This document shows, piece after piece, positions 1-59,154 of a stretch of 64,000 nt of DNA. Source of the DNA: a virus (lineage: Duplodnaviria; Heunggongvirae; Uroviricota; Caudoviricetes); IMG/VR virus record IMGVR_UViG_3300045988_154997, positions 32,001-96,000 of that record, one strand, 5' to 3'. The notes under the pieces were generated by a model, which saw only the letters and a program-made list of their open reading frames with translations, searched no databases and was not told the DNA's origin. The translations under genes were made by a program, and so were the position numbers. Numbering within the stretch: the first letter of the stretch is position 1; each line of letters begins with the position of its first letter.

Positions 1-1929
1 CGTTTTAAAGCTCATTGGCTCAATTCCACCACCTAAATCTTTAAGCAGCTTGCGCATTGGGCCTGATTCAAGCTGGAAAACACCTTGAGTGTACCCAGCA
101 GCAAAACCATCCAGCACCTTGCGATCTTCAAGAGAAATGGCATCAAGATTGATATCCTCACCTGTGTTCTCTTTAATGTAGCGTTTTGCACTATCGAGCA
201 AATCGAGAGTCGCCAGGCCAAGTACGTCCAGCTTAATTAGGCCCATAGCCTCGCAGTAACGCTTGTCAAATGCGATACAACGCGCGTCACCACGTCGTTC
301 AACCGGTGTTCGTTCTGTCAGAGGAACACCTGCTACGATCATCCCTGCCGCATGTCTACCATAGCCACGCATAAGGCTTTGTAACTTGCAGGCTGCATTG
401 AATGCATCAGGATATTTTGTCGCGTATTTGTCGAGGCTTGCCAGTTGTTCGCGCAGCTCTTCCAATGGAAGGCTATCATCCTCGACGTTCTTCAGTTCTT
501 TTGATACCGCCATATCTGCGGACTCCACACCATAAATACGAGCGGTGTCACGTAGTGCAGAGGCCGCGCCCAGGTAGGTGAAGTTCGGAATGCCTGCAAC
601 GTAATCTTCGCCGTAGCGTTCATTCAGATACTCGATCACCTCATGGCGACGTGCCTGGCTGAAGTCCAAGTCCGCATCTGGCAAGTCGAGACGCTCAGGG
701 TTGATGAAACGTTCAAACAGAAGACCGTGACGGATAGGGTCGACGTTGGTTATGCCTATGCACCATGCCACCAAAGAGCCAGCGGAGGAACCACGACCAG
801 GCCCGACAGGAATGCCAGTTTCACGGCTGTGATTCATCAGATCGCGTACCATCAGGAAGTAACCACAAAATCCCAGGCGAGTAAGCGTGTCCATTTCGTA
901 CTTAAGTCGCTCAACATAAACCCTGTTCTCAGAAGCCGGTGGTGTGTAGCCAAACTCTTTTGTGGTAAGACGTTTACGCAGCCCAGCAACGGCCAGTTTC
1001 ATCAGCGTTGCAGGCTCGTCGTCTGCCATCTTTGGCAGTGCTGGTGGCAATTCATGCCAGCGCCATGTGCAGGCATCGATAATGGTATCCTGCGTTGTTG
1101 AGGCCATTGCGGCTGTTACCGGCACATCCATGCGAACGGAGAAGGCTTTCAGCGCCTCAAGGAGATGGCGGCGACCATTGACGGCGTTATCTCGCTGGTG
1201 GGGGATACGCAGACGATGCGGCTGGTCGATTTTGATGTTGTTCGTAACCATGTGCGCAATGTCTTTAATGTCTGCATCGTCGATCGATTCGTAATAAGCG
1301 GGATAGAACGCTACTGGCTCTATTTTCAGTGCGCTGGCGACTTTCATCGCCCGGACGTTAATCTGGTCGTAGAATGGGGTAGGGTGCGGATAAACCACAC
1401 TATAGAAGTTGTTTTTTCCACCCGCTGTAATCAGTGAGCTTATGATTTTTGCAAAATCGTTGCGTTGGTACACGCTACCGATGTCGGCAGTGAGCAGGAT
1501 GATGTTGCCTTTGGCATATGTAGAAACCAACTGTTCGAGCGAGAGACGCGGTACAAAGTAGAACTGTTCTCGTGTGTTGGCCGCCGTCATTAGTTCGCAG
1601 ATGTCTCGATATCCCTGCTCATTTTTAATTAGAGCGGTAAAGGAGTAGTTCCGCCCACGCTCTAATGATTCCATACATCCCATAGACTCTTTAGCAAGTT
1701 TAGCCCGGTGCTCGTATGTGGGATCATCAACAATGTTTAGTTTCACACCACAAATAACCGCCATGTCGTCACCAGCGGCACGTTGTAGTGGAATAACACT
1801 CGCAATATTCATGCTATCTGCCGAAATTACAGCGGTGTAGCCAGCTTCTCTGGCAATCTTCACCGCGTTTTCTGCTTTTAGAGCCGACTCCCCAAGAGAG
1901 AAGTCAGTTCGAACCATCAGAGCCTTCAT
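1..1929 (-). CDS. dnaE: DNA polymerase III alpha subunit (DnaE-like), N-terminal part; gene runs off the window start
   Basis: Minus-strand frame is open from the ATG at 1929 to position 1. Translation starts MKALMVRTDFSLGESALKAENAVKIAREAGY (PHP-domain-like) and contains GFCGYFLMVRDLMNHSRETGIPVGPGRGSSAGSLVAWCIGITNVDPIRHGLLFERFINPER, a classic DnaE core motif. AAAGG RBS lies upstream of 1929. Not in the ORF track because no stop codon falls inside the window. Confidence 0.85.
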   Translation of the reverse strand, partial: MKALMVRTDFSLGESALKAENAVKIAREAGYTAVISADSMNIASVIPLQRAAGDDMAVICGVKLNIVDDPTYEHRAKLAKESMGCMESLERGRNYSFTALIKNEQGYRDICELMTAANTREQFYFVPRLSLEQLVSTYAKGNIILLTADIGSVYQRNDFAKIISSLITAGGKNNFYSVVYPHPTPFYDQINVRAMKVASALKIEPVAFYPAYYESIDDADIKDIAHMVTNNIKIDQPHRLRIPHQRDNAVNGRRHLLEALKAFSVRMDVPVTAAMASTTQDTIIDACTWRWHELPPALPKMADDEPATLMKLAVAGLRKRLTTKEFGYTPPASENRVYVERLKYEMDTLTRLGFCGYFLMVRDLMNHSRETGIPVGPGRGSSAGSLVAWCIGITNVDPIRHGLLFERFINPERLDLPDADLDFSQARRHEVIEYLNERYGEDYVAGIPNFTYLGAASALRDTARIYGVESADMAVSKELKNVEDDSLPLEELREQLASLDKYATKYPDAFNAACKLQSLMRGYGRHAAGMIVAGVPLTERTPVERRGDARCIAFDKRYCEAMGLIKLDVLGLATLDLLDSAKRYIKENTGEDINLDAISLEDRKVLDGFAAGYTQGVFQLESGPMRKLLKDLGGGIEPMSFKT

Positions 1930-3345: not shown

Positions 3346-3440
3346 GCGTTTTTCCTTTGTTTTCTAATGAGCTTTCAACTTCTTATATAAATATACCATC
3401 AAATATCGTAAGTGATTACTTATCATTAAGGCTATTCTAA

Positions 3441-5860: not shown

Positions 5861-6066
5861 TCAATCAATCCATTCTAACTTATACTATGGTAAGGAATAC
5901 TACTAAAATTTGTATCAATACTGAATACATTCATATCATATGCAAGTTACTTTTCTTACCTATTTTGGGCTAATTTTTCTCCGTGCAATGGCCTTTAACC
6001 GGTCTTTTAAGTGCCTATCGAAAAAAATGATAATAGCTTTACAACCCTAACCTTTGATGTAATATC

Positions 6067-6080
6067 GGTAAGCACTTACC
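6067..6080. promoter_or_regulatory. perfect 14-bp palindrome GGTAAGCACTTACC, candidate operator upstream of the HTH gene
   Basis: Read directly; lies about 32 nt upstream of the ATG at 6112; same core as the recurrent intergenic motif. Confidence 0.5.
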
Positions 6081-6111
6081 AGAGAGAATTGAACGCGCAA
6101 AGGTTGTGACC

Positions 6112-6498
6112 ATGTCTGATAACAAGATTGAATTTATAGAAAGTCGCTACGCTGCTTTTATCGCAGGGTTGATTGAATCCTCACCTATGAGCCAGGCCCA
6201 GATAGCCAAAACAATTGGGTATAAAAACGCCAACAACCTTTCTTTAATTAAAAGCGGCAAAATTCCTTTGCCTATCGATAAGGTTCGTCCGCTGGCGCTG
6301 GCACTGGGTATTGAGCCAAGTCGTCTTATGATGATGGTGCTGGAAGAACGCCAACCCGAACTCGCAGCATTTTTATACAAAGAAGGCACTGCTCCTCTTA
6401 ACGAGGACGAAAAACAGGTTCTTGCTGCATATAACGAGCGATTCGGTAAAGAGAAAGGCGCATCACAAAAGGTTGTTGAGGCCATAAAGTCTCTATGA
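6112..6498 (+). CDS. HTH (Cro/CI-type) DNA-binding protein
   Basis: SQAQIAKTIGYKNANNLSLIKSGK resembles an XRE-type helix-turn-helix; ATG at 6112 with AAGG RBS preferred over the track's GTG at 6106. Confidence 0.5.
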   Translation: MSDNKIEFIESRYAAFIAGLIESSPMSQAQIAKTIGYKNANNLSLIKSGKIPLPIDKVRPLALALGIEPSRLMMMVLEERQPELAAFLYKEGTAPLNEDEKQVLAAYNERFGKEKGASQKVVEAIKSL

Positions 6499-7596
6499 AA
6501 AATTTACACGAATAAGCTCTGTTGATAGACGATCTCCCTTAAATTTGTGGTCAATTTCGTCTAAATCCGGTTGCTCTACGATTGATGCGATGTACGTCGA
6601 GAAACTTTCTAAGGCGTCTCGCATCTCGTCCATATAATCGTGCCGGTCGTAGACCCGATCTATCCCCTCAAGACTGTGGTTCATGATTTTACGTGATACC
6701 TCCTGGCTTATGCCTAATGCTGGGAAGTAACTACGCGCAGTACGGCGCAAATCTCGGGGTGTAAATGGCTCAAGCTCCATCAGTTCTGGTCGTTCCAGAA
6801 TACGACGTAATGCCTGGGCTATTGCCACTTTAGACATAGGAAGGTCTTTCCCGATTTTTTTATTCGAAGGCACGAGCCACTGGCTGTCTTTACCATATTC
6901 GAACAACTCTTCAATACATGTGCGCATTAATGAGCTTAAAGGCAGAGAATGCTCACGGGCAGATTTGTTCCTCTTGCCTTGATTCCAAACCCCACGCTTA
7001 AGATTGAACTCACTTTTTTTAGCCCGCAGTACTTCGTCAGGTCGTCTTGCGGATACAAGACATAGCCTGGCCGCCCATTTTGTACCAGCACACACATTGA
7101 AGTAGTCCCATATATTCCAGAACACCCATACCTCTGCGTCGGTCAGCTTCCGCTCGCGAGGTGTGGGCTTTGCGCCACCGGCAACTTTGTTAAGTGACAT
7201 ATCGTTTAACGGTGACACGTCGATCATCCCCTGGAAGGCGCACCAGCTGAGGAACTGCTTCATCAGAGAGAAAACGCGGCGACCCATAACAATTTTGCCA
7301 TCCAGTATTAGTGGGTTGACCAGTTGGTTCACCATGAACCTATTAATATCACTTACTTTTACATCGGCAATGTGCGGCAAAACATGTATCAAAATACAAT
7401 GAACAGCGATCTCTGGCCGACGTCTTGTTATCAGCAGAGATAAGCGAGTGAATAACATGAATGCGTCCGAGAATCTCATGTCATTGCTGACCTGGGAGAT
7501 CATAACGGCCTGCATTTGAGATGCTCTTTCGAGATACTCAATCGCCTCTTTTGAGGTGTTCTCCGCAGCGCGTGCTCTGTCAAAGCTATTTTTCAT
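6493..7596 (-). CDS. int: tyrosine site-specific recombinase (integrase/resolvase family)
   Basis: C-terminal catalytic signature DLRRTARS ... NHSLEGIDRVYDRHDY (R..T.R / H / R..Y pattern of tyrosine recombinases); 367 aa. Confidence 0.75.
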   Translation of the reverse strand: MKNSFDRARAAENTSKEAIEYLERASQMQAVMISQVSNDMRFSDAFMLFTRLSLLITRRRPEIAVHCILIHVLPHIADVKVSDINRFMVNQLVNPLILDGKIVMGRRVFSLMKQFLSWCAFQGMIDVSPLNDMSLNKVAGGAKPTPRERKLTDAEVWVFWNIWDYFNVCAGTKWAARLCLVSARRPDEVLRAKKSEFNLKRGVWNQGKRNKSAREHSLPLSSLMRTCIEELFEYGKDSQWLVPSNKKIGKDLPMSKVAIAQALRRILERPELMELEPFTPRDLRRTARSYFPALGISQEVSRKIMNHSLEGIDRVYDRHDYMDEMRDALESFSTYIASIVEQPDLDEIDHKFKGDRLSTELIRVNFS

Positions 7597-7694
7597 ATGA
7601 CAATCACCGAGTTACGCCGATGCACTGTATAAGTAAACAGTATATTAGGCATAGATTCTTATAGGATCAAGAGTAAAAGTAACTCATTTTCAGT

Positions 7695-7727
7695 AATGAT
7701 TCCATACATAGTAGGTATGGAATCATT
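7695..7727. repeat. lox/dif-like recombination core candidate: 13-bp inverted repeats around a 7-bp spacer
   Basis: AATGATTCCATAC-atagtag-GTATGGAATCATT, perfect arms, about 100 bp from the recombinase start codon. Confidence 0.5.
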
Positions 7728-7804
7728 GGGGGGCGATTTTTTTGAATCTATCTTTTCGAACGGAGGGGTTGGCTTCACTTTTATCTTCATCACCTAAAAG
7801 GTAA

Positions 7805-8794
7805 TTGATTTACTTGAAAATGGCTGGTTTTATAGTATTGTCATGCGATCGCTGCAACAGGATAAGAAAAATGATAAAAGAGACACCGGAAGTCAACACG
7901 CTATCTGAGTTATTAGGGGCTACGCCTCCCAAACCTCAGCTAGTAGTGACGACTAAAGGTATTGATTTAGGTCTGGATATCTCCCTCGGAGATTGGAATA
8001 ACTCTTCATTATTATCACGACCTTCAGCTTTGTTAGCAATTGAGCATGGGGAAAATTTATTTGAACTCATGGATAAAGAGTTAGGTCTTGTTGGTATTAA
8101 TGAAGAAGGAGTGATCAAGTCAAACATCATTATCGAACTAGATCCCCATAAAACAACTATGAGAATATTAGGTAAAATTGCGGAAGCACTCATTGTTGAA
8201 GAATGTGAAAAAAACGCGAAACAAAATGAAAACTGGGCATTATTAGCAAAGAGATATACCCCTTTCACAGATAGTTTGTCTAATTATAAAGCTGTTGGGA
8301 CTGGACTCAACTATACGAAAATTAACTATCCTACTAAATATCAACCTAATGATACTCAACGGGACATTGTGTGGATAGACAAACGAGACCCACTTTCTCA
8401 ATTACTTATTTCTGCTCCAACGTCGAATTCAGGTATACAGGCTGGAATTCAAGTGAAGGTCAGTGCAAATGGTCTTAACTATCTATCACCAATGGATTTT
8501 TCTAGCAGAAGATATGAGGTCCCTATTGTTTACTTTGATTTAAATAATGATTTTTTTGAAATTCAGATGAAGATAGTGAACTCAGGAATTGATTCGGTTT
8601 ATGGAATGGATTATCACCGTGGTAGAAACATTTCTCCTGAAATACATGAAAAACTATGTGCATATTATAACCTTATATACTCCATTATCATTGGTGATAT
8701 GAAATTAGAGGCTCTGTTACTAAATGAAGAGGCACTGAAAGGGTATGTGACTGAGATTAAAGATAGACAAGGTAAAAGAATAATCGTGACGTGA
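7805..8794 (+). CDS. hypothetical protein (329 aa), AT-rich cargo gene
   Basis: Long ORF in a roughly 35-38% GC segment; no recognisable motif; true start may be an internal Met. Confidence 0.5.
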   Translation: MIYLKMAGFIVLSCDRCNRIRKMIKETPEVNTLSELLGATPPKPQLVVTTKGIDLGLDISLGDWNNSSLLSRPSALLAIEHGENLFELMDKELGLVGINEEGVIKSNIIIELDPHKTTMRILGKIAEALIVEECEKNAKQNENWALLAKRYTPFTDSLSNYKAVGTGLNYTKINYPTKYQPNDTQRDIVWIDKRDPLSQLLISAPTSNSGIQAGIQVKVSANGLNYLSPMDFSSRRYEVPIVYFDLNNDFFEIQMKIVNSGIDSVYGMDYHRGRNISPEIHEKLCAYYNLIYSIIIGDMKLEALLLNEEALKGYVTEIKDRQGKRIIVT

Positions 8795-8986
8795 AAACCT
8801 AAACTGTAAAGGCAACAAAAGGTGAAATAATAACTCATTAAAAGCACATTGTGTGAAATTTTAATCTGATAATTCATATATCGGAAGGGATTTTAGATAT
8901 TTTTAATATTTATAACTGTCCTTTTCATAGATATAGTTGATTTGAGCGCACACTTTCATGTAAAAAGCCGCCTAAGCGGCTCTTAA

Positions 8987-9232
8987 TTATAATGTACTCA
9001 CCAGAGCGGCGAATTCCGTATAGCCACCGATAGATTCGCCATTTACGAACACCTGCGGTATGGTCTCCACCGGCTTGCCAACCAGGGCGCTCAATTTCTC
9101 TTTGTCTATCCCAGCAGACACAATATCGATGTATTCGTAATCGCCAAAACCGTGACCGTGAAGCTGCTTCGCCAGCTCGACCGCACGTTTGCAGTATGAG
9201 CAGTTATCTCGTCCATAGATAGTGATCGTCAT
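8987..9232 (-). CDS. glutaredoxin-like protein
   Basis: 81 aa; N-terminal MTITIYGRDNCSYCKRA with a CxxC redox motif (CSYC) and overall glutaredoxin/NrdH-like layout. Confidence 0.75.
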   Translation of the reverse strand: MTITIYGRDNCSYCKRAVELAKQLHGHGFGDYEYIDIVSAGIDKEKLSALVGKPVETIPQVFVNGESIGGYTEFAALVSTL

Positions 9233-9372
9233 TGCTTTGCCTCGTTATGCGCTTCGCTGGGGAACGTGTAGCGGTTAGTGAAAGAGCTGAGGTGGTAGTG
9301 CTCGTGAATGTATGGATTTGACTTCTGCACCTGACGAGATGCGCGACGCGCATGTTTACATTTATTTCCCAT
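9229..9372 (-). CDS. small hypothetical protein (47 aa), translationally coupled to the glutaredoxin gene
   Basis: Internal ATG at 9372 preceded by GAAAGGA RBS; stop overlaps the glutaredoxin start (ATGA). The longer track ORF would start inside the conserved intergenic motif. Confidence 0.3.
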   Translation of the reverse strand: MGNKCKHARRASRQVQKSNPYIHEHYHLSSFTNRYTFPSEAHNEAKQ

Positions 9373-9428
9373 ATTGAGTCCTTTCAAGTGAGTATCCGAA
9401 AGAACTATACAGTTAACGTGCGTAAAAA

Positions 9429-9448
9429 GTAAGTGCTTACCTATCATT
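9429..9448. promoter_or_regulatory. recurrent intergenic motif GTAAGTGCTTACCTATCATT (palindromic core GTAAG-TG-CTTAC)
   Basis: Exact 13-mer CTTACCTATCATT also at 15558-15570 and 27927-27939; sits in the divergent region between the glutaredoxin operon and the 273-aa gene. Confidence 0.5.
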
Positions 9449-9521
9449 TATTGATAGAAGAATAGCCGCCTGTCGTGTGATACTATTTACAGAACTAAAC
9501 TGGCTTTCCACAAGGTGTAAA

Positions 9522-10343
9522 ATGACTATCCTTGAAAATCCTGATGCGAATGTTGAATCTGTTTATAGTCTTCATCCAACCACGTTGTTTCATTTTACAA
9601 AAAACGAAGATGCTTTCTATAGCATATTGGCTGAGAAATATTTTAAACCATTTCTTGCTCGCGAGGAAATAAGAGGAGTCGGGGGACGCAGGAGGTTTGC
9701 AGTACCAATGGTATCGTTTTGTGACATAAAACTATCACAAATCAGAGATCATAGCGGAAAATATGGAGAATTCGGTCTTGGGCTAACTAAGTCTTGGGCG
9801 GAAAAGAAAGGTCTACACCCAGTTCTATATATGAATAAGAGTAGTGAAATATTTTCTAAATACAATGCCAGAATTCGACTTATTAAAAATAAGTTGGTGC
9901 CGCTTTGGAAGGCTAGAGGAAATTTAGATACCAAAAACAGAATAGAGTTTGAGAAATTGAAAGCAGAATATTCTGATCTATATAATTTACTGCGTTATAT
10001 GAAAAATTACAGAGGCAAGCTAGAGCGAAAAGATAATAAAACAATAGAGAATTATATATATGCAGACGAGAAAGAGTGGCGTTATGTGCCAGCTCCTTTT
10101 ATTGGTGATTTATGGCCTAGTCTGAGTTTGGAGCGTGTTATCACTTCTGATGACAAAGCAAAAATTAGCTCAAAATTTTCAAAGTTTGGCATTGATTTTG
10201 AGTTCAATGATATAAAATATATACTTATACCTAAAGAACAACATATCCAAAAGCTAATTAACTTTCTCTCAGGTTTAGATGGATTTGAATCTTCAATTAT
10301 TAGCAAAATTCTGACCATGGATAAAGTAAAGCAAGATTTTTAA
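9522..10343 (+). CDS. DUF2971/Abi-like protein (tentative family assignment)
   Basis: ATG at 9522 with AAGGTG RBS. Motifs LFHFTK...FYSIL, FAVPMVSFCD...HSGKYGEFGLGL and C-terminal EKEWRYV echo the LYKY / MWSHY..HKGFCIGF / E.EWR pattern of the DUF2971-like protein at 23116-23835. AT-rich. Confidence 0.45.
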   Translation: MTILENPDANVESVYSLHPTTLFHFTKNEDAFYSILAEKYFKPFLAREEIRGVGGRRRFAVPMVSFCDIKLSQIRDHSGKYGEFGLGLTKSWAEKKGLHPVLYMNKSSEIFSKYNARIRLIKNKLVPLWKARGNLDTKNRIEFEKLKAEYSDLYNLLRYMKNYRGKLERKDNKTIENYIYADEKEWRYVPAPFIGDLWPSLSLERVITSDDKAKISSKFSKFGIDFEFNDIKYILIPKEQHIQKLINFLSGLDGFESSIISKILTMDKVKQDF

Positions 10344-10369
10344 TTTTTGGTTTAACGGGAGCCTAATTA

Positions 10370-11581
10370 GTGTCAATATTTTTAAGCGAAAAGGAAATGC
10401 AAAATTGGATAATTGACAAATTATCTGATCAAGATGGATTATATAATTCAATCATCAATATTGATAAATTAAATGAATTTAATCCGAAAAGACCCGAAGA
10501 GAAAAAAATTAAGGAGAGTTATCAGTTTTGTTTAAAGAACATAACATTGTTACATTTAATGACAGATGATGAGAATATCTCAGCAACAAAATCTGAGATA
10601 TTAAGACCTGATGTCGTTGCTTATTCAACAGAGAATGAATCCTTAGTTCTTATTGAGTTAAAAAATTTTTCAACACCAACAAGGGAAGCTGGAACTGAGC
10701 TAGTGGCATATGCTGCGGAACTAAAAAGTTACTTGTCATACTTGTCTGATGGAGATATTACCAATGTACTTATATCACCTGACTGGCCACCTTTGGTTAG
10801 ACACTTTATTTTTAATATGATCGTGTGGCAGAAGAAAAACTTTCTATGTTTAGAACCTTGCTATGATTTACAAGGTAACGTATCACTTACTCCTTTAGAT
10901 ATTAATAAATTAGTTATTGCGGAAGAAGCACTCAAGTTCTCATTTCGTCATCTTGGCGGGTTTCATATATGTTTGTATGATGATGAAATGTATAATCAAC
11001 CGACTTCCACTTCTCGTTTACATTCGAAATTGAATGTTATTAAAGCCAGCATGGCAAAAATGTCCTCAGACGGTGAAAAGACTAATAGCCATGGGTTTGC
11101 TATTTTATGTAGAAATTTGAACGAGAGAACTTTAGCACCATATACGATTACTCTAGTTAATGTTTCTGCGTTTTCTTCCATAGAGCGATACTTTCATTCG
11201 CCACAAATATCCAATGCTTCTCAACTCCCTAGAATAGGACAAAAAATTTATGACATTTACACTCATTACCAACCATCAGGTTTTGGGGCATCAATGTCGA
11301 AAATTTACAATTCTGGGAGGGCATATTTAGAAAAAATTAATTGCAAGCCGCGGATCGAGGTTATAGACACCTGGGATGTATTGCAAGTACATACACATGC
11401 GCCTTATATGGAAATGGTTCATATTGAAACGTGGGGAGTTTTTAAAGAAAAATTGATTGAAGGTCTAAATGAATGTTATGAGGATGAATATTACACACCT
11501 GATTTTAACGATGTAGATTTTTGCATGGTGTGTATTGAATCCTTAATTGACCAGAATTATGAATTTATAAAACTTTTTTGA
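10370..11581 (+). CDS. PD-(D/E)xK nuclease-like protein with unknown C-terminal domain
   Basis: N-terminal ILRPDVVAYSTENESLVLIELKNFS fits a D ... E-x-K restriction-endonuclease-fold signature; GTG start at 10370 with GGGAG RBS; 403 aa; about 33% GC. Confidence 0.5.
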   Translation: MSIFLSEKEMQNWIIDKLSDQDGLYNSIINIDKLNEFNPKRPEEKKIKESYQFCLKNITLLHLMTDDENISATKSEILRPDVVAYSTENESLVLIELKNFSTPTREAGTELVAYAAELKSYLSYLSDGDITNVLISPDWPPLVRHFIFNMIVWQKKNFLCLEPCYDLQGNVSLTPLDINKLVIAEEALKFSFRHLGGFHICLYDDEMYNQPTSTSRLHSKLNVIKASMAKMSSDGEKTNSHGFAILCRNLNERTLAPYTITLVNVSAFSSIERYFHSPQISNASQLPRIGQKIYDIYTHYQPSGFGASMSKIYNSGRAYLEKINCKPRIEVIDTWDVLQVHTHAPYMEMVHIETWGVFKEKLIEGLNECYEDEYYTPDFNDVDFCMVCIESLIDQNYEFIKLF

Positions 11582-11584
11582 AGA

Positions 11585-11604
11585 AAAGGGGCCGAAGCCC
11601 CTTT
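11585..11604. terminator. stem-loop AAAGGGGC-cgaa-GCCCCTTT, probable intrinsic terminator, likely bidirectional
   Basis: Directly after the stop at 11579-11581; on the minus strand it is followed by TTTTCTTC, so it also ends the tRNA transcript. Confidence 0.55.
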
Positions 11605-11680
11605 GAATATTGCGCTGAAAAAAAGTGTTGCTAGGATGTTAGCAAGCTATGGTTAAGAACGTCTGCCGTAATTGTCAATC

Positions 11681-11758
11681 ACAGCGTTGAGCGGTCTGGT
11701 TTATGTTAGCGGAGTCTTAATCGAGTTGATTAAAAGGCCAAACCGCTCAACGCTGTGT
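11681..11758. repeat. 16-bp perfect inverted repeat (CACAGCGTTGAGCGGT / ACCGCTCAACGCTGTG) forming a long hairpin abutting the tRNA-Ser 3' end
   Basis: Read directly; arms separated by 46 nt. Confidence 0.6.
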
Positions 11759-11759
11759 C

Positions 11760-11846
11760 TGGCGGAGAGTAATGGAATCGAACCATCATCGTTTGCACAA
11801 TGGGACGATTTTCAAGACCGCTTGAGCACCATGCTCCCTACTCTCC
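11760..11846 (-). tRNA. tRNA-Ser (anticodon TGA), type II with long variable arm, CCA encoded
   Basis: Minus-strand sequence GGAGAGT...CGGTCTTGAAAATCG...GGTTCGATTCC...ACTCTCCGCCA: 7-bp acceptor stem, anticodon loop CTTGAAA, T-loop TTCGATT. Confidence 0.7.
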
Positions 11847-12070
11847 GGCCGTTGTGGTGGCCGGTACTGAATCTCCGGCATACGGTGCAGCCAATTAGGA
11901 CTACGGACGATCACCGCTCGCGAAAGGGAAGATTTGCGGCCGCATTTCCCTAACATCCAAGAAAGCTATCGCATCAGTCTGCGAATCCACCACAACGGTA
12001 AGATCACTACCTTTCGACCAGTCATTGTGCACATGAACGACGATTAACCGTAATGATCTTATCGTTGTAT

Positions 12071-12147
12071 TGGTGCCGGTTAACGGACTCGAACCGCTGA
12101 CATCCTGCTTACAAGGCAGGCGCTCTACCAACTGAGCTAAACCGGCA
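12071..12147 (-). tRNA. tRNA-Thr (anticodon TGT), CCA encoded
   Basis: TGCCGGT-TT-AGCTCAGTTGGTAGAGC-G-CCTGC-CTTGTAA-GCAGG-ATGTC-AGCGG-TTCGAGT-CCGTT-AACCGGCA-CCA; canonical cloverleaf. Confidence 0.85.
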
Positions 12148-12150
12148 ATT

Positions 12151-12237
12151 TGGTGGGGAGTGATGGAGTCGAACCACCCGAGTCGCAATGACAGTAGATT
12201 TACAGTCTGTCCCGCTACCTCTACGGACTAACTCCCC
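12151..12237 (-). tRNA. tRNA-Tyr (anticodon GTA), type II, CCA encoded; two non-canonical pairs in the anticodon stem
   Basis: Anticodon arm and variable arm AGACTGTAAATCT.C.GTCAT closely resemble E. coli tRNA-Tyr as recalled from memory; acceptor GGGGAGT/ACTCCCC; T-loop TTCGACT. Confidence 0.65.
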
Positions 12238-12242
12238 TAAAT

Positions 12243-12317
12243 TGGCGATGGTGGGTGGATTCGAACCACCGACCAGTTGGTTAACAGCCAACTGCTCTAC
12301 CGCTGAGCTACACCATC
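12243..12317 (-). tRNA. tRNA-Asn (anticodon GTT), CCA encoded
   Basis: GATGGTG-TA-GCTC-AGCGGTA-GAGC-A-GTTGG-CTGTTAA-CCAAC-TGGTC-GGTGG-TTCGAAT-CCACC-CACCATC-G-CCA. Confidence 0.85.
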
Positions 12318-12581
12318 AATTCAGCACTGCCAGTATTTATTACTCAACAGTGCCAATCGCGGCGGTGTTAGTTTCTGCCAGGAAACACACCGCTACTGGC
12401 ACTTTCCGTTAGTGCCAGACGTTTTCGACTTCGCTCAATAGAAGGCAAAATCTTTAAGTAGATGATGTTTCTGAGGACAGCACCTACTTTGTAATTTATA
12501 CAATGTGATGTATGGAATCATTTGTTGTGAAAACAGGCACTAATGGCAACAGTGGTTAAACCTATACAACAATCCTGTCTT

Positions 12582-12703
12582 CACAACGTTGAGGCCACTA
12601 CTCCGATTGAATGTTTGCCCAACATGTTACATATCAACGCTCGCCGGTATCTCTGTGAATAGAACCTTAGAATTGATAAAAATGTAATGGCCTCAACGTT
12701 GTG
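12582..12703. repeat. 15-bp perfect inverted repeat (CACAACGTTGAGGCC / GGCCTCAACGTTGTG) separated by about 92 nt in an ORF-free region
   Basis: Read directly; similar in sequence to the arm of the 11681-11758 repeat (CACAgCGTTGAG). Confidence 0.6.
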
Positions 12704-12781
12704 TGCTGGCTAACCATACCAGCCGGGCTACGTCGCCGCTTTTTAACCCAGTATAAACGACATAATTGAACAAAATGACGT

Positions 12782-12857
12782 AACAGGATGGGCGGTCATT
12801 GGCTAAGAATCCGGGAGTCGTATATGAGTTGAAAATATACTGACCGCCCATTCTGTT
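12782..12857. repeat. 17-bp inverted repeat (AACAGGATGGGCGGTCA / TGACCGCCCATTCTGTT, one mismatch), spacer about 42 nt
   Basis: Read directly; followed by a further 9-bp hairpin GGAGGGAAC/GTTCCCTCC at 12867-12891. Confidence 0.55.
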
Positions 12858-13094
12858 ACTTCATCGGAGGGAACTCTCATGTTCCCTCCTGCGTTCTGCA
12901 ATCACACTCGCTCAGTGTGTCCCATTTCGGTAACGAGGCTGGAAACTGACCTCGCTGGTGTTTGGCTTATTAGGCTACTGCCAGATAGACTTCTTCGTTT
13001 GCACTTGTATTTAAGTTCAAACAGTCGCGTCTCAACGAAAACAAAGTCATCTTATACATAAAAGATAGGTAAGTAAATACTTATTATTGTATTT

Positions 13095-13385
13095 TTATTC
13101 GGTTGTGACTTTTTTGATCAAGGCCACTCTACGACTAGGTGTTCTTGTGATGGTGGCAGTGAATTGTTTCGCTTGGATAGTAATGGTTTCGTTCTCCTTA
13201 AGTTGCCCGTAGCGAGTTTCCACCAGGGTGCCAAGACGCCACAGACCATCATCGATACGTTTATGACTAGCAAATTTAATCAGCAACAGTTTTACGACTA
13301 ACTGACCTACGTAAAAGGCGAATGCGACTCCGGCCGCTAAGAAATAGGTGACCAACCACCATTCCCAAGAAGTTAACTTGCTCAT
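13095..13385 (-). CDS. small membrane protein (96 aa)
   Basis: N-terminal hydrophobic helix WEWWLVTYFLAAGVAFAFYVGQLVV; ATGA overlap with the upstream small ORF. Confidence 0.45.
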   Translation of the reverse strand: MSKLTSWEWWLVTYFLAAGVAFAFYVGQLVVKLLLIKFASHKRIDDGLWRLGTLVETRYGQLKENETITIQAKQFTATITRTPSRRVALIKKVTTE

Positions 13386-13534
13386 TTTTTCACCTTTGTT
13401 TCATGAACTACTCGATACACGCGCTTTCCGATGCACAGTGTTTTGGTTTTAAGTTCCTGCTTAATCAAATCATGACAGATGCCGAAGCCGATAAGGAAGC
13501 CAGCCATAAAAGCCAATGAGATGTATGGAATCAT
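13382..13534 (-). CDS. small membrane protein (50 aa; below the ORF-track size cutoff)
   Basis: ATG at 13534 with AGGAGCC RBS; translation MIPYISLAFMAGFLIGFGICHDLIK...; overlaps neighbours at both ends (ATGA). Confidence 0.35.
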   Translation of the reverse strand: MIPYISLAFMAGFLIGFGICHDLIKQELKTKTLCIGKRVYRVVHETKVKK

Positions 13535-13746
13535 TTAAAGGCTCCTGATTCTACTAATTGCTGTAGCAATAATTTCCCTTTATCAGTTAACTGGTAGTTG
13601 GCCGAGCGCCACGTTTCAGAAACGTTTGCAACCAACCCTAAACGCTCTAACTTAGCTCGCGTTTTAGGCTTCCAGTACTCAGGGAACTCCGGCCACTTAC
13701 TTATTTCATGAAGCGTTTCTTTCTCCCGTTTACTTAATACGATCAT
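13531..13746 (-). CDS. hypothetical protein (71 aa)
   Basis: ORF only; coupled to the ligase stop. Confidence 0.4.
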   Translation of the reverse strand: MIVLSKREKETLHEISKWPEFPEYWKPKTRAKLERLGLVANVSETWRSANYQLTDKGKLLLQQLVESGAFK

Positions 13747-15065
13747 TCTTTATCTCCGATTCGATCTTCGGTATCGCGTAAGCAACGCGGCCATTTCAGT
13801 CGTGGGTGGCGTAAGCTGCCATCAGGTGTTTTCTCGTGACAATGAACCTCGACAATACGACCACGGTACTTCTCTTTGTTGTTCCAGATCTCGTCCAGAT
13901 ATTTATGCTTAATGCCGCTCGCACGAACGATGACGCCGTTTTCAAGACGAATAACAATTTTCCCAAGCGTGTTGGCAAAACCAGAGTCCGGGTCGCCCGG
14001 CTCAAAATCGATAATTTCACCATCTTCTGAATCTTCGTCTTTTAACTTCCACCAGCTGCGGGTACGTTTAAACTCGTAAACAGAGTTCGGATCTTTGCCC
14101 ATCTCCCCTTCTTCGTTATCGTCCAGGCGTTTCATGAAGCGTTCGATGAAGTCTTCGTGGCTATGGATGATGTAGAACGGATGCAGGTGAATGTCTTGTG
14201 CGTAGCCTTCACTGCGATCGTTTTTGAACAACGCCACGAGCATAGCCAGGCGCTCTTTCAGCTTCATACCTGTCTTTGCATACTCTTTGGATTTAGCCTG
14301 TGCTCGCCATTCCGGTAGGAAGAAGTCGAAAACATGATAAATAGCGCCAATTGCCTGCACGTTCTTTTTGCGCAATGCAGATACGGACTGGTTAAATGAA
14401 CCGGCTGTGCCTTCACCATCGAAGAAGATGTGTTTGTGGCCTGAAAGTTTGCCTAATTCGAGCATGGCTGGCTTTAGGTGATCGAGAGACGTGATTGGAT
14501 TACCAGTACGAGAAAGGAAGTTAACCTCTTCTTCGTCAACAATAACCTCGCAAATTACTCGCAAACCATCGAGCTTAAGGCTGCCAATCATCGGCCATTT
14601 TGCTTTAGGGTTTGGCTTGAAGGGGTATTTGTCGCCTTTTTCTTTATACGGTGACGCCAGCTGCACCTCGAATTTCGGAATGGGATTTTCAAAAACCTTG
14701 TTGCATAGGCTAATCCCAACGCCAGCTTTCGGATCTTTTAAGAGGAAACGACGGAAGACGTCCTGCCCATCGGCGCACATTGACGCCACGATAGACTCAA
14801 CAGCAGCTATTGCTGCGTTCCCCGTCAGCTCGCGAGAGGCCAGCTTATTCAGTACATCAATGGCTTTTTCGTCACTTGGGACGGACTCACTAAGCGGCTC
14901 TGCCACTTTGTATTTCTTTACCCCAAAACGGATGAAAGGGTTGAGCATCAATGAAACCATGCTTTGTTCAAAGTCATCCATGTTGGCCAATGCCTCTTTT
15001 TTTGCATTGGTTCCCATAGCTTTCATTTCGTCCAGCTTATGCTTAAGTGCGATCAACTTTTTCAT
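13743..15065 (-). CDS. ATP-dependent DNA ligase
   Basis: Adenylation motif I KxDGxR present as SLKLDGLRVI; 440 aa. Confidence 0.8.
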   Translation of the reverse strand: MKKLIALKHKLDEMKAMGTNAKKEALANMDDFEQSMVSLMLNPFIRFGVKKYKVAEPLSESVPSDEKAIDVLNKLASRELTGNAAIAAVESIVASMCADGQDVFRRFLLKDPKAGVGISLCNKVFENPIPKFEVQLASPYKEKGDKYPFKPNPKAKWPMIGSLKLDGLRVICEVIVDEEEVNFLSRTGNPITSLDHLKPAMLELGKLSGHKHIFFDGEGTAGSFNQSVSALRKKNVQAIGAIYHVFDFFLPEWRAQAKSKEYAKTGMKLKERLAMLVALFKNDRSEGYAQDIHLHPFYIIHSHEDFIERFMKRLDDNEEGEMGKDPNSVYEFKRTRSWWKLKDEDSEDGEIIDFEPGDPDSGFANTLGKIVIRLENGVIVRASGIKHKYLDEIWNNKEKYRGRIVEVHCHEKTPDGSLRHPRLKWPRCLRDTEDRIGDKE

Positions 15066-15532: not shown

Positions 15533-15599
15533 AATTACCGCCAGAAATAATCTTGTGCTTACCTATCATTATTTGCGTAAAAAACGACACACAGAGAGC

Positions 15600-16382
15600 T
15601 TACCAACTTCCCCAGCTAATCATCTTGCGCTGATCGCTTTCTAAGCGATAGGGGGCAAGAAGCTCTGTGACATGATTGGTGGCGTATGATTTGGCCTCTT
15701 GCTCTATCATCGGTAATTCGTTAGCAATCCTGACCATCTTCCCAGCAAATTCCGCCATTACGCCATCACACGCCTTACCCGCATCAACAATGATATGCAC
15801 AAGATCCAACTGGCTTTTGCACATGTCCCAAAGAGTCGAATATTCGCTCTCCCTGATTAGATTTACAGCATCATTAGCCCCTTTATTAATCAAAACCTCC
15901 AACAGATTTGTCGGGGTGACGAAATCGGCTTTCAGAGACAATGTTGGTTCAGCTTTTACCGACAGCAAGTAATCTTCAAAGTTTTGCTTGTCTTCCAGCA
16001 AAGCTAAACTACGCATAGCTCGAATTGATTCTCGAATAACGGCTTCAATATGTTCGTCACCTGGAGGACAGATAATGGTATCTGTATAGATGACTCTGCC
16101 ATCAAACCACGTCCCAACCTGCACTTTTAGAGTTCGTAAGTTTTCTTTGCGTACAAAAACAACTAATGCAGAACGTCGTGCATGTGCAGGTTCGCCCCAT
16201 ACGCACAACTTAACCTTCAGATAAGGTAGCCCCGGTAGCGGGATCTCGACCAAACGAGTGGCGATATGATCCATTGCCGTATTGACGGCTTTTCCAATGA
16301 TGTCTAGCCGATTGCTCTCGCTGATTTCTAAACCAGTTTTATCAATGATGTTGCAGGCTAATCTCTTAATTTCTTCTTTCAT
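15600..16382 (-). CDS. hypothetical protein (260 aa)
   Basis: ORF only; no recognisable motif. Confidence 0.5.
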   Translation of the reverse strand: MKEEIKRLACNIIDKTGLEISESNRLDIIGKAVNTAMDHIATRLVEIPLPGLPYLKVKLCVWGEPAHARRSALVVFVRKENLRTLKVQVGTWFDGRVIYTDTIICPPGDEHIEAVIRESIRAMRSLALLEDKQNFEDYLLSVKAEPTLSLKADFVTPTNLLEVLINKGANDAVNLIRESEYSTLWDMCKSQLDLVHIIVDAGKACDGVMAEFAGKMVRIANELPMIEQEAKSYATNHVTELLAPYRLESDQRKMISWGSW

Positions 16383-16507
16383 ACCAACTCCTAGCTAACG
16401 GATGAAAGTATTCTTACAAAAACTTAAGTATGTATATACTTATCATTTTAGGTGCAATAGTTCTTTATACTAAGATGCCGGGCGTATCCGCAGCCCAGCA
16501 TTCACCT

Positions 16508-16921
16508 TTAATGAGCTACAGCCTCACTGTTGCACATCTTTCTGTAGACCTGCTTATAACGCTGTAAATCATGAGGATCATTAGGTGCCAACGACTTCGA
16601 TAGGATTTTGTATACCACCCCTTTTGAAAACATGCCCTTTGGCTTCATTTCGAGTTCAACAACATATGAGTGATAGCCCACGTATGCACCAAAGCCATTT
16701 TTGGCGTTTAATTCACCACACACAAAGCCTGTCACACTCCCATCATCATGATCAGTCCTGACAAACTTATCTTTCCTAAACATCACCGACGTGGGATCTT
16801 TCATATCATCCGCAATTGCCTGTTGGCCCAGAGTAATAGCCTTCTCGTCTGTAGGCTTACACCCAACTAATGCAAACAAAGACAATAAAGCACCTGTTAA
16901 AATCAACTTCTTTTTGCTCAT
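16508..16921 (-). CDS. lipoprotein (137 aa)
   Basis: Signal peptide MSKKKLILTGALLSLFALVGC with lipobox LVGC. Confidence 0.6.
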   Translation of the reverse strand: MSKKKLILTGALLSLFALVGCKPTDEKAITLGQQAIADDMKDPTSVMFRKDKFVRTDHDDGSVTGFVCGELNAKNGFGAYVGYHSYVVELEMKPKGMFSKGVVYKILSKSLAPNDPHDLQRYKQVYRKMCNSEAVAH

Positions 16922-27865: not shown

Positions 27866-27934
27866 GAAAAGTCAAATCGGGATGGCGGATTTATATCACA
27901 TTTCACCCTTTTGTTGTAGGTGTGTACTTACCTA

Positions 27935-28168
27935 TCATTCAGCATTGCAACGAACTGATGAGAAAGCACCTACTCCTACCCATCGCCAGTTATAGATGCT
28001 ACCCGCTTTGTATAAGGTATAGTCGTTCACTTTTTTAACAGCATATATGGGTATGACTGTCTCCTGTCCACCAATGATAGCCTCACCGTAACATATAGGT
28101 GTCGGCAATTTCTGGCAGCCAGTAAGAGAGAGAACAACAGCTATTGTTAGAAATAATCTTTTCATCAT
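27935..28168 (-). CDS. small lipoprotein (77 aa); possible superinfection-exclusion protein (Llp/Cor-like by context)
   Basis: Signal peptide MMKRLFLTIAVVLSLTGC with lipobox LTGC; immediately downstream of the tail-fiber locus. Confidence 0.5.
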   Translation of the reverse strand: MMKRLFLTIAVVLSLTGCQKLPTPICYGEAIIGGQETVIPIYAVKKVNDYTLYKAGSIYNWRWVGVGAFSSVRCNAE

Positions 28169-52252: not shown

Positions 52253-53827
52253 TCACTCGTTCTCTTGAGTAGATGAGTCCCCATTCCCTCGGGGTTGATC
52301 TTGCCCGCTTTCTTGGGCTGCACCACGATCATAAGTAAGTACTGACTTATTTTCAAGGGTATTTAGATCATTTTTTGGAGGAAAATTCAAGAGATCTTTA
52401 TCAAATTCCTTTTTCATCGCCTCAGTAATGTTCGGGAAAATCTTCTCAATAAGCATTTCCATCTGGTGACGACGTACAGAGTCCGGTGCCTGAAGTAATG
52501 ACAGTTTCTCGGCAACAGAAAATTCATCAGTAAGGCCACGAATATCGAAACTTTCTGGATACGCAATTAAAGAGTGGTCTTCGTCCAGATCTACCCCCAT
52601 CCATTTCGCAACCAGTAGCATGATTTGGCGTTCAGCCCTTTCCAGACGCTCTGCTTTTGTGACAAGCAAGCTATTTACACGCTGGAAGTCATACATTTTT
52701 GCGGCACCAGATGAATTATCGATTCCCTGTGCGTTGTCCTGCTTCGTTCGCTCACCAGCTACACCAACTGAATGGTAGATTTCGTTAATCACCGTCTTAA
52801 TCGTAGTGATGATCATCTGAGCTTGTTTCGGGTCTGGTGACAGATAAAACGGCTGGTTTCCACCTTCAGAATCGTAGGTGAAGACTCGCTTTGTGCCCAT
52901 TTCAAGCACTTTAGTGTGGTTTTCATCACCAGGTAAAAGCGACTGTACCGGTATAGCCAACTGGCTAAATGTCTGATCCTGAATAATGGCATCAAGGTTT
53001 GACAGATAGTTTGCAACCGCACGATCAAGATAAGCGATATCATCGATCAACGATGGGCTGAAATACGGTGATTCACTTTCTCCAATACAATCAACAGGAA
53101 ACACAGGAACTACGCCGAGATTATGCTCACCGCTATCCTCTAAAATAACTTTTGCCTGACGGCGACCTGCTCCACCAGCGCCCTTCTTCACTTCCTCACG
53201 GAACAGATACCACTCGTTTTGTGTCCACAGACGATAACGTTGGTATTCCTGACCTGTAGAAGTAAAAGGATCTGCGTCATCACGAGCGACTTCCACAATT
53301 AACGCCCACAACATATTCCCGTCGTCGTCCCATGCCACATCCAGCATTTGCTGAGGTGAAATCCAGTAGGCGTAGGCGCGAGCATCTTTCTTTTTCTCGT
53401 CAGCTACTGACTCAACATCACCACTCATCGTGCTATCGACAACAACCCATATGCGACCGTAAATAGACGACTGCAAATCAATAGCGGCCATAAATGAGTC
53501 AATAGAGGCATTCTGGCGAGTCGCACGTTTCCAGAAATTGCGGATCTGCTCTGGTGCCTCTTCGATATTTCTATGAATGTCTTCTTTAAAGAGATATTTG
53601 TTGATGAGGTTTACCACCTCACGAGTGTGGTTGAAGCGATAAGCACGTTCAACTCGCTCCTTAAACTCCTGATCTCCCTCTTTAAAGTAACGAAAGATAT
53701 TGTCTGTAAACCAACCACGCCCGCCAGCGTAAGTGCTGGCGAGGAAGTCCCAATGTTCTTTTTTCTTTTCGTATTCCGGGTGGCGTCGCGCCACCAGATC
53801 CTTAATTTGTTTGTCGTTCAATTCCAT
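52253..53827 (-). CDS. portal protein
   Basis: 524 aa immediately downstream of terL; synteny and size. Confidence 0.65.
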   Translation of the reverse strand: MELNDKQIKDLVARRHPEYEKKKEHWDFLASTYAGGRGWFTDNIFRYFKEGDQEFKERVERAYRFNHTREVVNLINKYLFKEDIHRNIEEAPEQIRNFWKRATRQNASIDSFMAAIDLQSSIYGRIWVVVDSTMSGDVESVADEKKKDARAYAYWISPQQMLDVAWDDDGNMLWALIVEVARDDADPFTSTGQEYQRYRLWTQNEWYLFREEVKKGAGGAGRRQAKVILEDSGEHNLGVVPVFPVDCIGESESPYFSPSLIDDIAYLDRAVANYLSNLDAIIQDQTFSQLAIPVQSLLPGDENHTKVLEMGTKRVFTYDSEGGNQPFYLSPDPKQAQMIITTIKTVINEIYHSVGVAGERTKQDNAQGIDNSSGAAKMYDFQRVNSLLVTKAERLERAERQIMLLVAKWMGVDLDEDHSLIAYPESFDIRGLTDEFSVAEKLSLLQAPDSVRRHQMEMLIEKIFPNITEAMKKEFDKDLLNFPPKNDLNTLENKSVLTYDRGAAQESGQDQPRGNGDSSTQENE

Positions 53828-59129: not shown

Positions 59130-59154
59130 TAAGTAATCACTTACTTATTATAAT
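59127..59154. promoter_or_regulatory. recurrent motif ACTAAGTAATCACTTACTTATTATAAT in the divergent region between the ParB-like operon and the helicase
   Basis: Shares TAAGTAATCACTTAC with the element at 3408-3427. Confidence 0.45.

Follow-up and report, generated by a model that had tools for sequence, protein, structure and literature searches.

Cre/loxP of the phage-plasmid P1 and the related simple-site systems Dre/rox and Vika/vox each combine the tyrosine recombinase of a plasmid prophage with an adjacent site made of 13-bp inverted arms and a short asymmetric spacer. The stretch of DNA analysed here (called the window: 64,000 nucleotides, positions 32,001 to 96,000 of the IMG/VR virus record IMGVR_UViG_3300045988_154997) belongs to a phage-plasmid of the SSU5/pHCM2 group and carries such a pair, i.e. 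the gene int, which encodes a tyrosine recombinase (Int), and a palindrome whose two arms are copies of the 13-mer GTATGGAATCATT. The site is a variant of a familiar system, a plasmid recombinase with a lox-like site, and a role in multimer resolution or cyclisation would be plausible. It differs from loxP in the length of the spacer (7 bp versus 8), in its recombinase, which is not Cre-like in sequence and has lambda Int as its best fold, in the LexA box of the int promoter and in three conserved single arms located kilobases from the palindrome; we know of no description of distant conserved orphan arms for loxP. Our leading explanation, in which we place moderate confidence, is that the 13-mer is the recognition element of the phage-plasmid's recombinase and that its lone copies are orphan half-sites rather than insertion scars.

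Other recombinase systems resemble the locus in part. As in integrons, where intI is under SOS control, the recombinase gene is divergent from the site, variable cargo lies directly beyond it and the recombinase promoter contains a LexA box; unlike in integrons, a scan by arm similarity showed no attC-like or arm-like repeats between the cargo genes, which have promoter-like sites of their own and run in both orientations, and IntI is a weaker structural match to Int than lambda Int. The nearest sequence relatives of Int beyond its family (25-34% identity) are P4-type tRNA-targeting integrases of the CP4-57 family, and tRNA genes are found nearby, but the domain PF13356 was not detected in Int, no tRNA 3' end is duplicated and the element is always plasmid-borne. 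The TnpI systems of Tn5401 and Tn4430 also have an inverted-repeat core site upstream of the recombinase gene and extra single copies of the motif elsewhere in the element, such as the additional TnpI site that Tn5401 has close to either end (PMC7157771); in these transposons the accessory repeats adjoin the core or sit in the terminal repeats, whereas the orphans of the window are 5-6 kb away and no accessory direct repeats flank its palindrome. In SPbeta, the recombinase-fold protein MrpR binds a 15-bp element that is dispersed in the phage genome (PMC10516654). As with the repressors MrpR and SroF (phi3T), a motif of ~15 bp is scattered in the phage genome analysed here, and binding by Int is predicted. 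According to its authors, MrpR has three of the seven core catalytic residues and has lost recombinase function, whereas Int keeps R, K, R, H and Y together with a palindromic core site. The literature that was searched contained no relevant mention of the motif, of the SSU5-group recombinase or its site, or of orphan half-sites.

The lox-like site and its recombinase

The palindrome, the recombinase gene and the elements between and beside them are located as follows.

7695-7727 (no strand): lox-like core site, 13-bp inverted arms AATGATTCCATAC / GTATGGAATCATT around the 7-bp spacer ATAGTAG
7728-7750 (+): loosely conserved block outside the right arm, G/C-rich for ~9 nt, then TTTTTT-GAAATCT
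6493-7596 (-): tyrosine recombinase Int, 367 aa, Pfam PF00589 (40.6 bits against a cut-off of 27.1)
7623-7670 (-): int promoter, -35 TTGATC at 7665-7670, 17-nt spacer, -10 TAATAT at 7642-7647
7623-7642 (-): LexA box TACTGT-N8-ACAGTG (TACTGTTTACTTATACAGTG on the minus strand), overlapping the int -10
6106-6498 (+): small helix-turn-helix regulator gene beside int

The palindrome has a 13-7-13 layout with perfect arms and lies 98 bp upstream of the int start codon. In 78 IMG/VR contigs identical arms enclose spacers of at least 11 different sequences, and constant arms around a variable spacer are, as judged from sequence, the signature of a tyrosine-recombinase core site. Species-representative genomes were searched with the pattern TGAYTCCAKAC-N7-GTMTGGARTCA, and palindromes of this family were found in 58 species across Enterobacterales, in genera including Pantoea, Rahnella, Erwinia, Ewingella, Xenorhabdus, Photorhabdus, Morganella, Hafnia, Kluyvera and Buttiauxella and also in Yersinia pestis; the settings include large non-phage plasmids with unrelated neighbouring genes. 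An Int homologue starts 40-148 bp from the palindrome in 56 of the 58 species. Arms of class TGATTCCATAC accompany an Int that shares at least 56% identity with the window protein, and arms of class TGACTCCAGAC one that shares 45-52%. Since the arm sequence switches with the Int clade, we infer that Int is the binder of the arms, and it most probably binds those of the palindrome. As in simple lox/FRT-type sites (arms of 11-14 bp, spacer of 6-8 bp), inverted arms enclose a short spacer, the recombinase gene is adjacent, and the arms co-vary with the recombinase while the spacer is free to vary. Outside the right arm, 14 right-flank types that are otherwise unrelated (including L001-L081; L numbers are our handles for relatives) show conservation at columns +10 to +23, within a loose pattern kept in the first 25 bases, and the functional site may extend past the palindrome on the cargo side.

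Int (WP_000797845.1) matches PHROG 1 'integrase' (E = 5e-47). Its AlphaFold model (predicted local distance difference test score 85.5) has residues 75-356 of lambda Int, the core-binding and catalytic domains, as the closest solved fold, with a template-modelling (TM) score of 0.77 normalised to the target. In an alignment of 33 sequences, with residues assigned by motif position, R185, K211, R284 and Y316 do not vary and at least 90% of the sequences have H307; the first His position of the R-K-H-R-H/W-Y set is occupied by an Arg (R281). The search for an Arm-DNA-binding domain (PF13356) in Int detected none, and phmmer against all Protein Data Bank chains gave no match at E <= 0.01. In the fold search, Cre comes no higher than rank 39 (10-13% identity), and no homology of Int to the Cre family was detectable in sequence. 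MrpR and SroF are among the structural matches to the model, at ranks 37 and 40, with weak TM scores of 0.30-0.36. The CTGT-N8-ACAG of the LexA box is kept, with varying central 8 nt, in most lineages whose Int is at least 82% identical, and the box is missing where Int is 44-60% identical; int is likely to be under SOS control.

Lone copies of the arm

Exact copies of GTATGGAATCATT occur five times in the window, at 1664 (-), 7695 (-), 7715 (+), 12510 (+) and 13523 (+), while 0.01 copies were expected from 100 dinucleotide shuffles, none of which gave five. A preliminary description of the window had recognised the right arm of the palindrome (7715-7727), and the left arm is a copy as well. 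It had also correctly reported that the copies at 7715 and 12510 are direct (both are +, as is the one at 13523), that the 17-bp sequence GATGTATGGAATCATTT is identical at 12507-12523 and 13520-13536, and that the 13523 copy spans the start codon of an open reading frame of 50 aa (13382-13534, -), whose protein begins MIPYI. Between 12501-12523 and 13514-13536 the identity extends to 22 of 23 bases. The fifth copy, on the minus strand inside dnaE, had been missed. The lone copies and a degenerate relative are listed below.

1664-1676 (-): orphan half-site in dnaE (PolIII alpha), codons 85-89 (CMESL), in a variable loop
12507-12523 (+): orphan half-site in the leader of the tRNA operon, untranslated, ~190 nt upstream of tRNA-Asn
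13520-13536 (+): orphan half-site on the start codon of the 50-aa membrane-protein gene (13382-13534, -), also overlapping the stop codon of the 71-aa gene
6980-6990 (-): degenerate relative GTTTGGAATCA, the window counterpart of an orphan found inside int in other lineages

The complete genome of Escherichia phage Cyrano (108 kb) contains the same five copies and no others, even with two mismatches allowed on the 13-mer, and that of Klebsiella phage pJN2-26 (110 kb) contains the same set, a one-mismatch copy inside int and nothing else (at most one mismatch, 12-mer). All lone copies are found within ~6.2 kb of the palindrome; by our own calculation the chance of such clustering for three sites on 108 kb is (12/108)^3, i.e. 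~0.001. Inspection of the sequence found no second arm 7 bp from any lone copy. The 7 bp beside the lone copies are similar to one another in the E. coli lineage (ATCCCAT, ATCACAT and ATCTCAT, i.e. ATCNCAT) and differ from the palindrome spacer ATAGTAG, so that a conservative crossover between lone copies and palindrome is not expected; in other lineages they are not conserved (ATCCTCC, ATCCTGT and others).

The regions of the lone copies were retrieved from relatives by way of the genes next to them, without using the motif. The 12510 and 13523 copies are orthologously placed in every lineage examined, whatever the cargo. In the leader, a region only 56-79% identical between lineages, the 15-mer GATGTATGGAATCAT occurs in 23 of the 25 representatives (mutual identity below 95%), and a 24th has TAT in place of GAT and keeps the 12-mer core. 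The single representative without the site (L017) loses homology ~20 nt before it, ~170 nt past tRNA-Asn, where foreign sequence starts with GGGGGAACCGCAGAATTCGGAAAAAATCGTACGCTAAG; this start resembles a Tn21/Tn1721-type terminal repeat, and the foreign sequence is probably a transposon insertion unrelated to the motif. At the start-codon copy, all lineages that were retrieved via the ligase gene have the same 15-nt core, except for a G to A change in two contigs, and the preceding stop codon and ribosome-binding site (RBS) region as well as the following codons vary around it. The dnaE copy is identical in seven of seven lineage representatives, synonymous positions included, in the midst of changing flanking residues. 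It is in frame and free of indels, and it arose by substitution rather than insertion, because the loops of Xenorhabdus and Providencia are of equal length without the motif. Yersinia pestis and two Kluyvera species, whose Int is 82-86% identical, have a further copy, GATGTATGGAATCA, within the int gene.

In the explanation we favour, GTATGGAATCAT(T) would be the DNA sequence that the tyrosine recombinase of the phage-plasmid itself recognises. At 7695-7727, two inverted copies separated by 7 bp would form the lox-like crossover site upstream of the int promoter, and this palindrome would be the fixed left edge of a cargo island from which everything rightward to the conserved backbone blocks would be exchanged between related plasmids. 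The dnaE, leader and start-codon copies would be orphan half-sites, each one perfect arm with no partner, which would have arisen and stayed in place by selection; each would bind a recombinase monomer and have a regulatory or architectural function. The extra TnpI sites of Tn5401 and the dispersed element bound by MrpR are precedents. Int is the most economical candidate for binding the orphans because they have at least 12 bases in common with the arm, occur only in the clade with the matching arm and cluster around int. That Int rather than another factor binds them, in a regulatory or architectural role, may well be true and is put forward here as a tentative proposal.

Several observations weigh against this reading. 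A role for a recombinase monomer inside dnaE or on a start codon remains putative. None of 50 8-kb loci from TGACTCCAGAC-class lineages holds an orphan of its own arm (GTCTGGAGTCA), and Xenorhabdus and Providencia have no own-arm orphans in two loci, 10 kb on each side; the test for orphan-arm covariation gave absence, not covariation, since the lineages with the alternative arm show no orphans. Genomes without int and palindrome (SSU5, L127 and L148) still carry orphans. In these three the orphans have the same context as in close relatives with int, the leader copy of SSU5 having two mismatches, and because of this match the losses of int appear recent, too recent to be informative. Finally, the common 15-nt core of the orphans includes a conserved GAT that is absent from the palindrome arms and falls where the palindrome has its variable spacer, a feature that simple arm binding would not predict.

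The orphans of int-less genomes and the extra GAT also favour an explanation independent of Int, which is possible but clearly less probable. Another backbone DNA-binding protein would recognise GATGTATGGAATCAT, or the motif would be an RNA-level element, and the arms of Int would have co-opted the sequence. In the RNA version, the sense copy in the dnaE mRNA would be complementary both to the tRNA leader and to the sequence around the start of the 50-aa gene. With regard to the transcribed strands, the dnaE copy runs antisense to the leader and start-codon copies (86% complementarity across 28 nt of the window), and several lineages have a small hairpin (GTTG...CAAC) after the leader copy; however, complementarity past the 15-17-nt core is not kept in other lineages and Rfam finds only tRNAs in the region. 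On the protein side no candidate was identified, and identity of at least 12 nt to a recombinase arm together with the clustering around int is hard to explain without Int. Scans for sigma-70 promoters and terminators near 1664, 12510 and 13523 found nothing, and a comparison by eye with the consensus sequences of sigma-54, IHF, Fur, CRP and parS gave no convincing match at the lone copies. Small open reading frames starting at the ATG within the motif (MIPY... or MESL...) were rejected upon inspection, as they are not conserved between copies or lineages.

If the orphans are bound by Int, the recombinase might have two jobs: crossovers at the palindrome, for multimer resolution and swaps of defence islands, and, derepressed by SOS, binding to the orphans as a regulator or roadblock. 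Orphan binding would then couple recombination to the switch from lysogeny to lysis. We regard this extension as speculative and rather unlikely. Swapping of islands between co-resident phage-plasmids at the palindrome would explain the base-precise breakpoint at 7727 described below.

The cargo island and predicted rearrangements

The window is near-identical to circular E. coli plasmids of 100-115 kb, pLH09-a-C being 100% identical to it over the tested stretch. Further E. coli relatives are Escherichia phage Cyrano (pLF82) and phage CMS-2020a, and others are known from Salmonella, Klebsiella and Yersinia pestis (a contig of pMT1 size); phage-plasmids like SSU5 are common. The element is present in ~218 of 5,426 complete E. 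coli genomes (~4%) and is plasmid-borne every time, with no chromosomal match in these genomes and all 215-430 matching places per search on plasmids. The gene order on the minus strand is dnaE (start 1929), an AAA ATPase gene, a CobT-like gene, the small regulator gene (6106-6498, plus strand), int (6493-7596), the cargo region and four tRNA genes (11760-12317), beyond which lie a 780-bp leader and an operon with the ligase, 71-aa, 50-aa and 96-aa genes (13095-15065). The features of the cargo region and its right border are the following.

7728-8985 (+): variable cargo slot A, 31-40% GC, absent from most relatives
7871-8794 (+): gene of a 307-aa protein without assigned function, the only gene in slot A
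8987-9447 (-): glutaredoxin gene (Pfam Glutaredoxin) and a small open reading frame, 47% GC, 75-88% identical in most relatives
~9450-11583 (+): variable cargo slot B, 30-37% GC, absent from L001-L003
9522-10343 (+): AbiGi-family abortive-infection gene (PADLOC AbiGi, E = 5e-47; Pfam AbiGi; PGAP)
10370-11581 (+): gene of the 403-aa partner of the AbiGi gene (PGAP annotation)
11584-11610 (no strand): conserved GC-rich hairpin GGGGCC-GAAG-CCCC between T-runs, read as a putative terminator; slot B recurrently ends here on the right
11760-12317 (-): tRNA cluster Ser, Thr, Tyr, Asn, conserved in relatives

Homology to Cyrano and two CMS-2020a genomes ends at 7727 (7750 in one) and resumes at 11578-11670; the most frequent restart, in nearly all relatives, is 11584, which is 926 bp before the 12510 copy. 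Only 7 of the 214 E. coli plasmids with this int region continue past 7727 into the cargo of the window, alignments end exactly at 7727 in 34 of 40 rows sampled across the ranking of E. coli plasmids, and 44 distinct right flanks are found in IMG/VR relatives. The right arm of the palindrome is a precise and recurrent breakpoint, and the DNA to its right is horizontally exchanged cargo. Within it, the glutaredoxin block is conserved backbone between two cargo slots; in relatives without slot A the glutaredoxin gene starts ~99 bp from the palindrome. The tRNA cluster and the leader are backbone, not cargo, and the GC content of the backbone is 43-48%. In mosaic genomes, the change of parent falls either at the palindrome/cargo island (L140/L141 and L119) or within the ligase gene (L121), and none switches at 12510 or 13523 in a scan that excluded the 1664 region. 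An integrated element spanning 5.7-11.6 kb as a unit was ruled out, L127 keeping the glutaredoxin gene and slot B without int and palindrome.

At the same position other lineages hold different accessory genes, so the hotspot persists across genera. In the Xenorhabdus relative L086, a ParE/Phd pair and a colicin/pyocin DNase accompanied by an immunity gene are located beside the palindrome or int (6884-9666), and the int-less relative L127 has a gene for a secreted 164-aa protein (15960-16850). Within the window, the glutaredoxin gene (8987-9245) is 86-88% identical to alleles of the Salmonella/Klebsiella type versus 75% to most E. coli relatives, which would indicate recombination inside the island itself. 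The 403-aa protein matches only PHROG 30092, of unknown function, apart from a weak HSDR_N-like Pfam match, and is possibly the second component of an AbiG-like defence pair.

Junctions predicted for rearrangements between the copies were built and searched in all complete E. coli genomes, ~218 of which match each half separately. The results bear on an improbable explanation in which the orphans are asymmetric sites of the shufflon sfx type (arm plus 7-bp core) for rare inversion, deletion or exchange between co-resident plasmids. The similar adjacent 7 bp of the E. coli lineage and the inverted orientation of the left orphan relative to the two right ones would fit such sites. No inversion junction 1676|13515 (1664x13523 only) was found in 219 genomes, however, and the copies keep their order and orientation in all contigs, unlike in inversion isomers of a shufflon; an inversion would moreover split dnaE, the adjacent 7 bp vary in other lineages and no mosaic breakpoints fall at 12510 or 13523.

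Still less probable, and largely refuted already, is the model of the preliminary description, in which site-specific or microhomology-mediated recombination inserted or rearranged a 4.8-kb segment, with the direct repeats at 7715 and 12510 and the 17-bp duplicate at 13520 as its substrates or products. The copies are indeed direct and enclose AT-rich cargo, and the left one sits at the sharp breakpoint at 7727. The segment had been portrayed as AT-rich cargo plus tRNAs; it holds two AT-rich blocks (~7728-8985 and 9450-11583, 30-37% GC), but the glutaredoxin block between them has 47% GC and the tRNAs are backbone. Likewise, acquisition holds for the exchanged cargo right of 7727, but as two variable slots around a conserved glutaredoxin block rather than as a single segment, and 12510 is not its other boundary: the right breakpoint is at 11578-11670 rather than at the repeat of 12507-12523. 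Relatives lacking the segment had been suggested as a check, and homology does break at 7727 in relatives, but it resumes at 11578-11670 with tRNAs and leader retained. Relatives with little or no cargo keep the palindrome and both right-hand copies instead of a single-copy empty site. The 17-bp duplication is no recombination junction, as both of its copies are orthologous in all lineages examined, regardless of cargo, with no breakpoints there, and the deletion junctions 7727|12523 and 7727|13536 are absent from the ~218 E. coli plasmids. Degenerate arm copies are not in excess either (37 versus 54 expected in 143 kb of distinct cargo, scored by arm similarity and not by folded attC-like structures), by which an integron-like cassette array with secondary sites was ruled out as well.

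Two side claims of the same description fared differently. The absence of a duplicated tRNA 3' end was borne out, with no exact duplicate among repeats of at least 13 nt and a nearest match of 75% over 24 nt; together with the plasmid location of all E. coli matches, this does not fit a tRNA-targeted element of the P4 type. A shared promoter or RBS sequence, offered as a fallback, does not account for the three contexts, which are internal codons, an untranslated leader and a start codon. Overall, the repeats very probably neither bracket nor mark the acquisition of a segment. The weakest explanation, coincidence with copies persisting through MIPY/CMESL coding or translation start, accords with two of three orphans overlapping coding sequence but is very improbable, already from the counts, as the non-coding leader copy is conserved, synonymous positions are invariant while neighbouring residues change, the two coding copies lie in different frames and strands and 0.01 exact copies are expected by chance.

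Three further observations concern the surrounding backbone. The AAA_5 ATPase gene between CobT and dnaE in L086 (14481-16802) carries a LAGLIDADG_3 domain, which suggests an intein or a homing-endonuclease insertion. Around and upstream of the tRNA cluster there are three long inverted repeats (11680-11757, 12582-12703 and 12775-12864) with arms of 20-24 nt, 92-95% complementarity and loops of 38-82 nt, two of which have the arm sequence CACARCGTTGAG in common; an Rfam search over the tRNA and leader region returned tRNAs only, with no match for the inverted repeats and no known leader RNA family. A second dispersed motif, GTAAGYRCTTACYTATCATT, contains the 12-bp palindrome GTAAG-NN-CTTAC and has 8 matches with at most three mismatches versus 0 expected. 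Its sites are at 3408-3427, 9429-9448, 13061-13088, 16428-16447, 27920-27939, 52327-52346 (-) and 59133-59152 and also at 6064-6079 and 15553-15575; those in the first 18 kb are mostly placed in short gaps directly upstream of minus-strand genes or operons, and the motif looks like an operator or promoter element of the phage-plasmid.

Significance for phage-plasmids of Enterobacterales

The analysis defines a family of lox-like sites in 58 Enterobacterales species, the exact edge of a hotspot for defence and other cargo genes, and a small set of recombinase-type orphan half-sites conserved inside essential backbone genes. Short exact repeats on either side of cargo are not, on their own, evidence of an insertion junction. 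With its two specificity classes, the 13-7-13 site could also be of use as an orthogonal recombination tool. If the recombinase does bind the orphans, the phage-plasmid would possess a catalytically competent recombinase that doubles as a local regulator.

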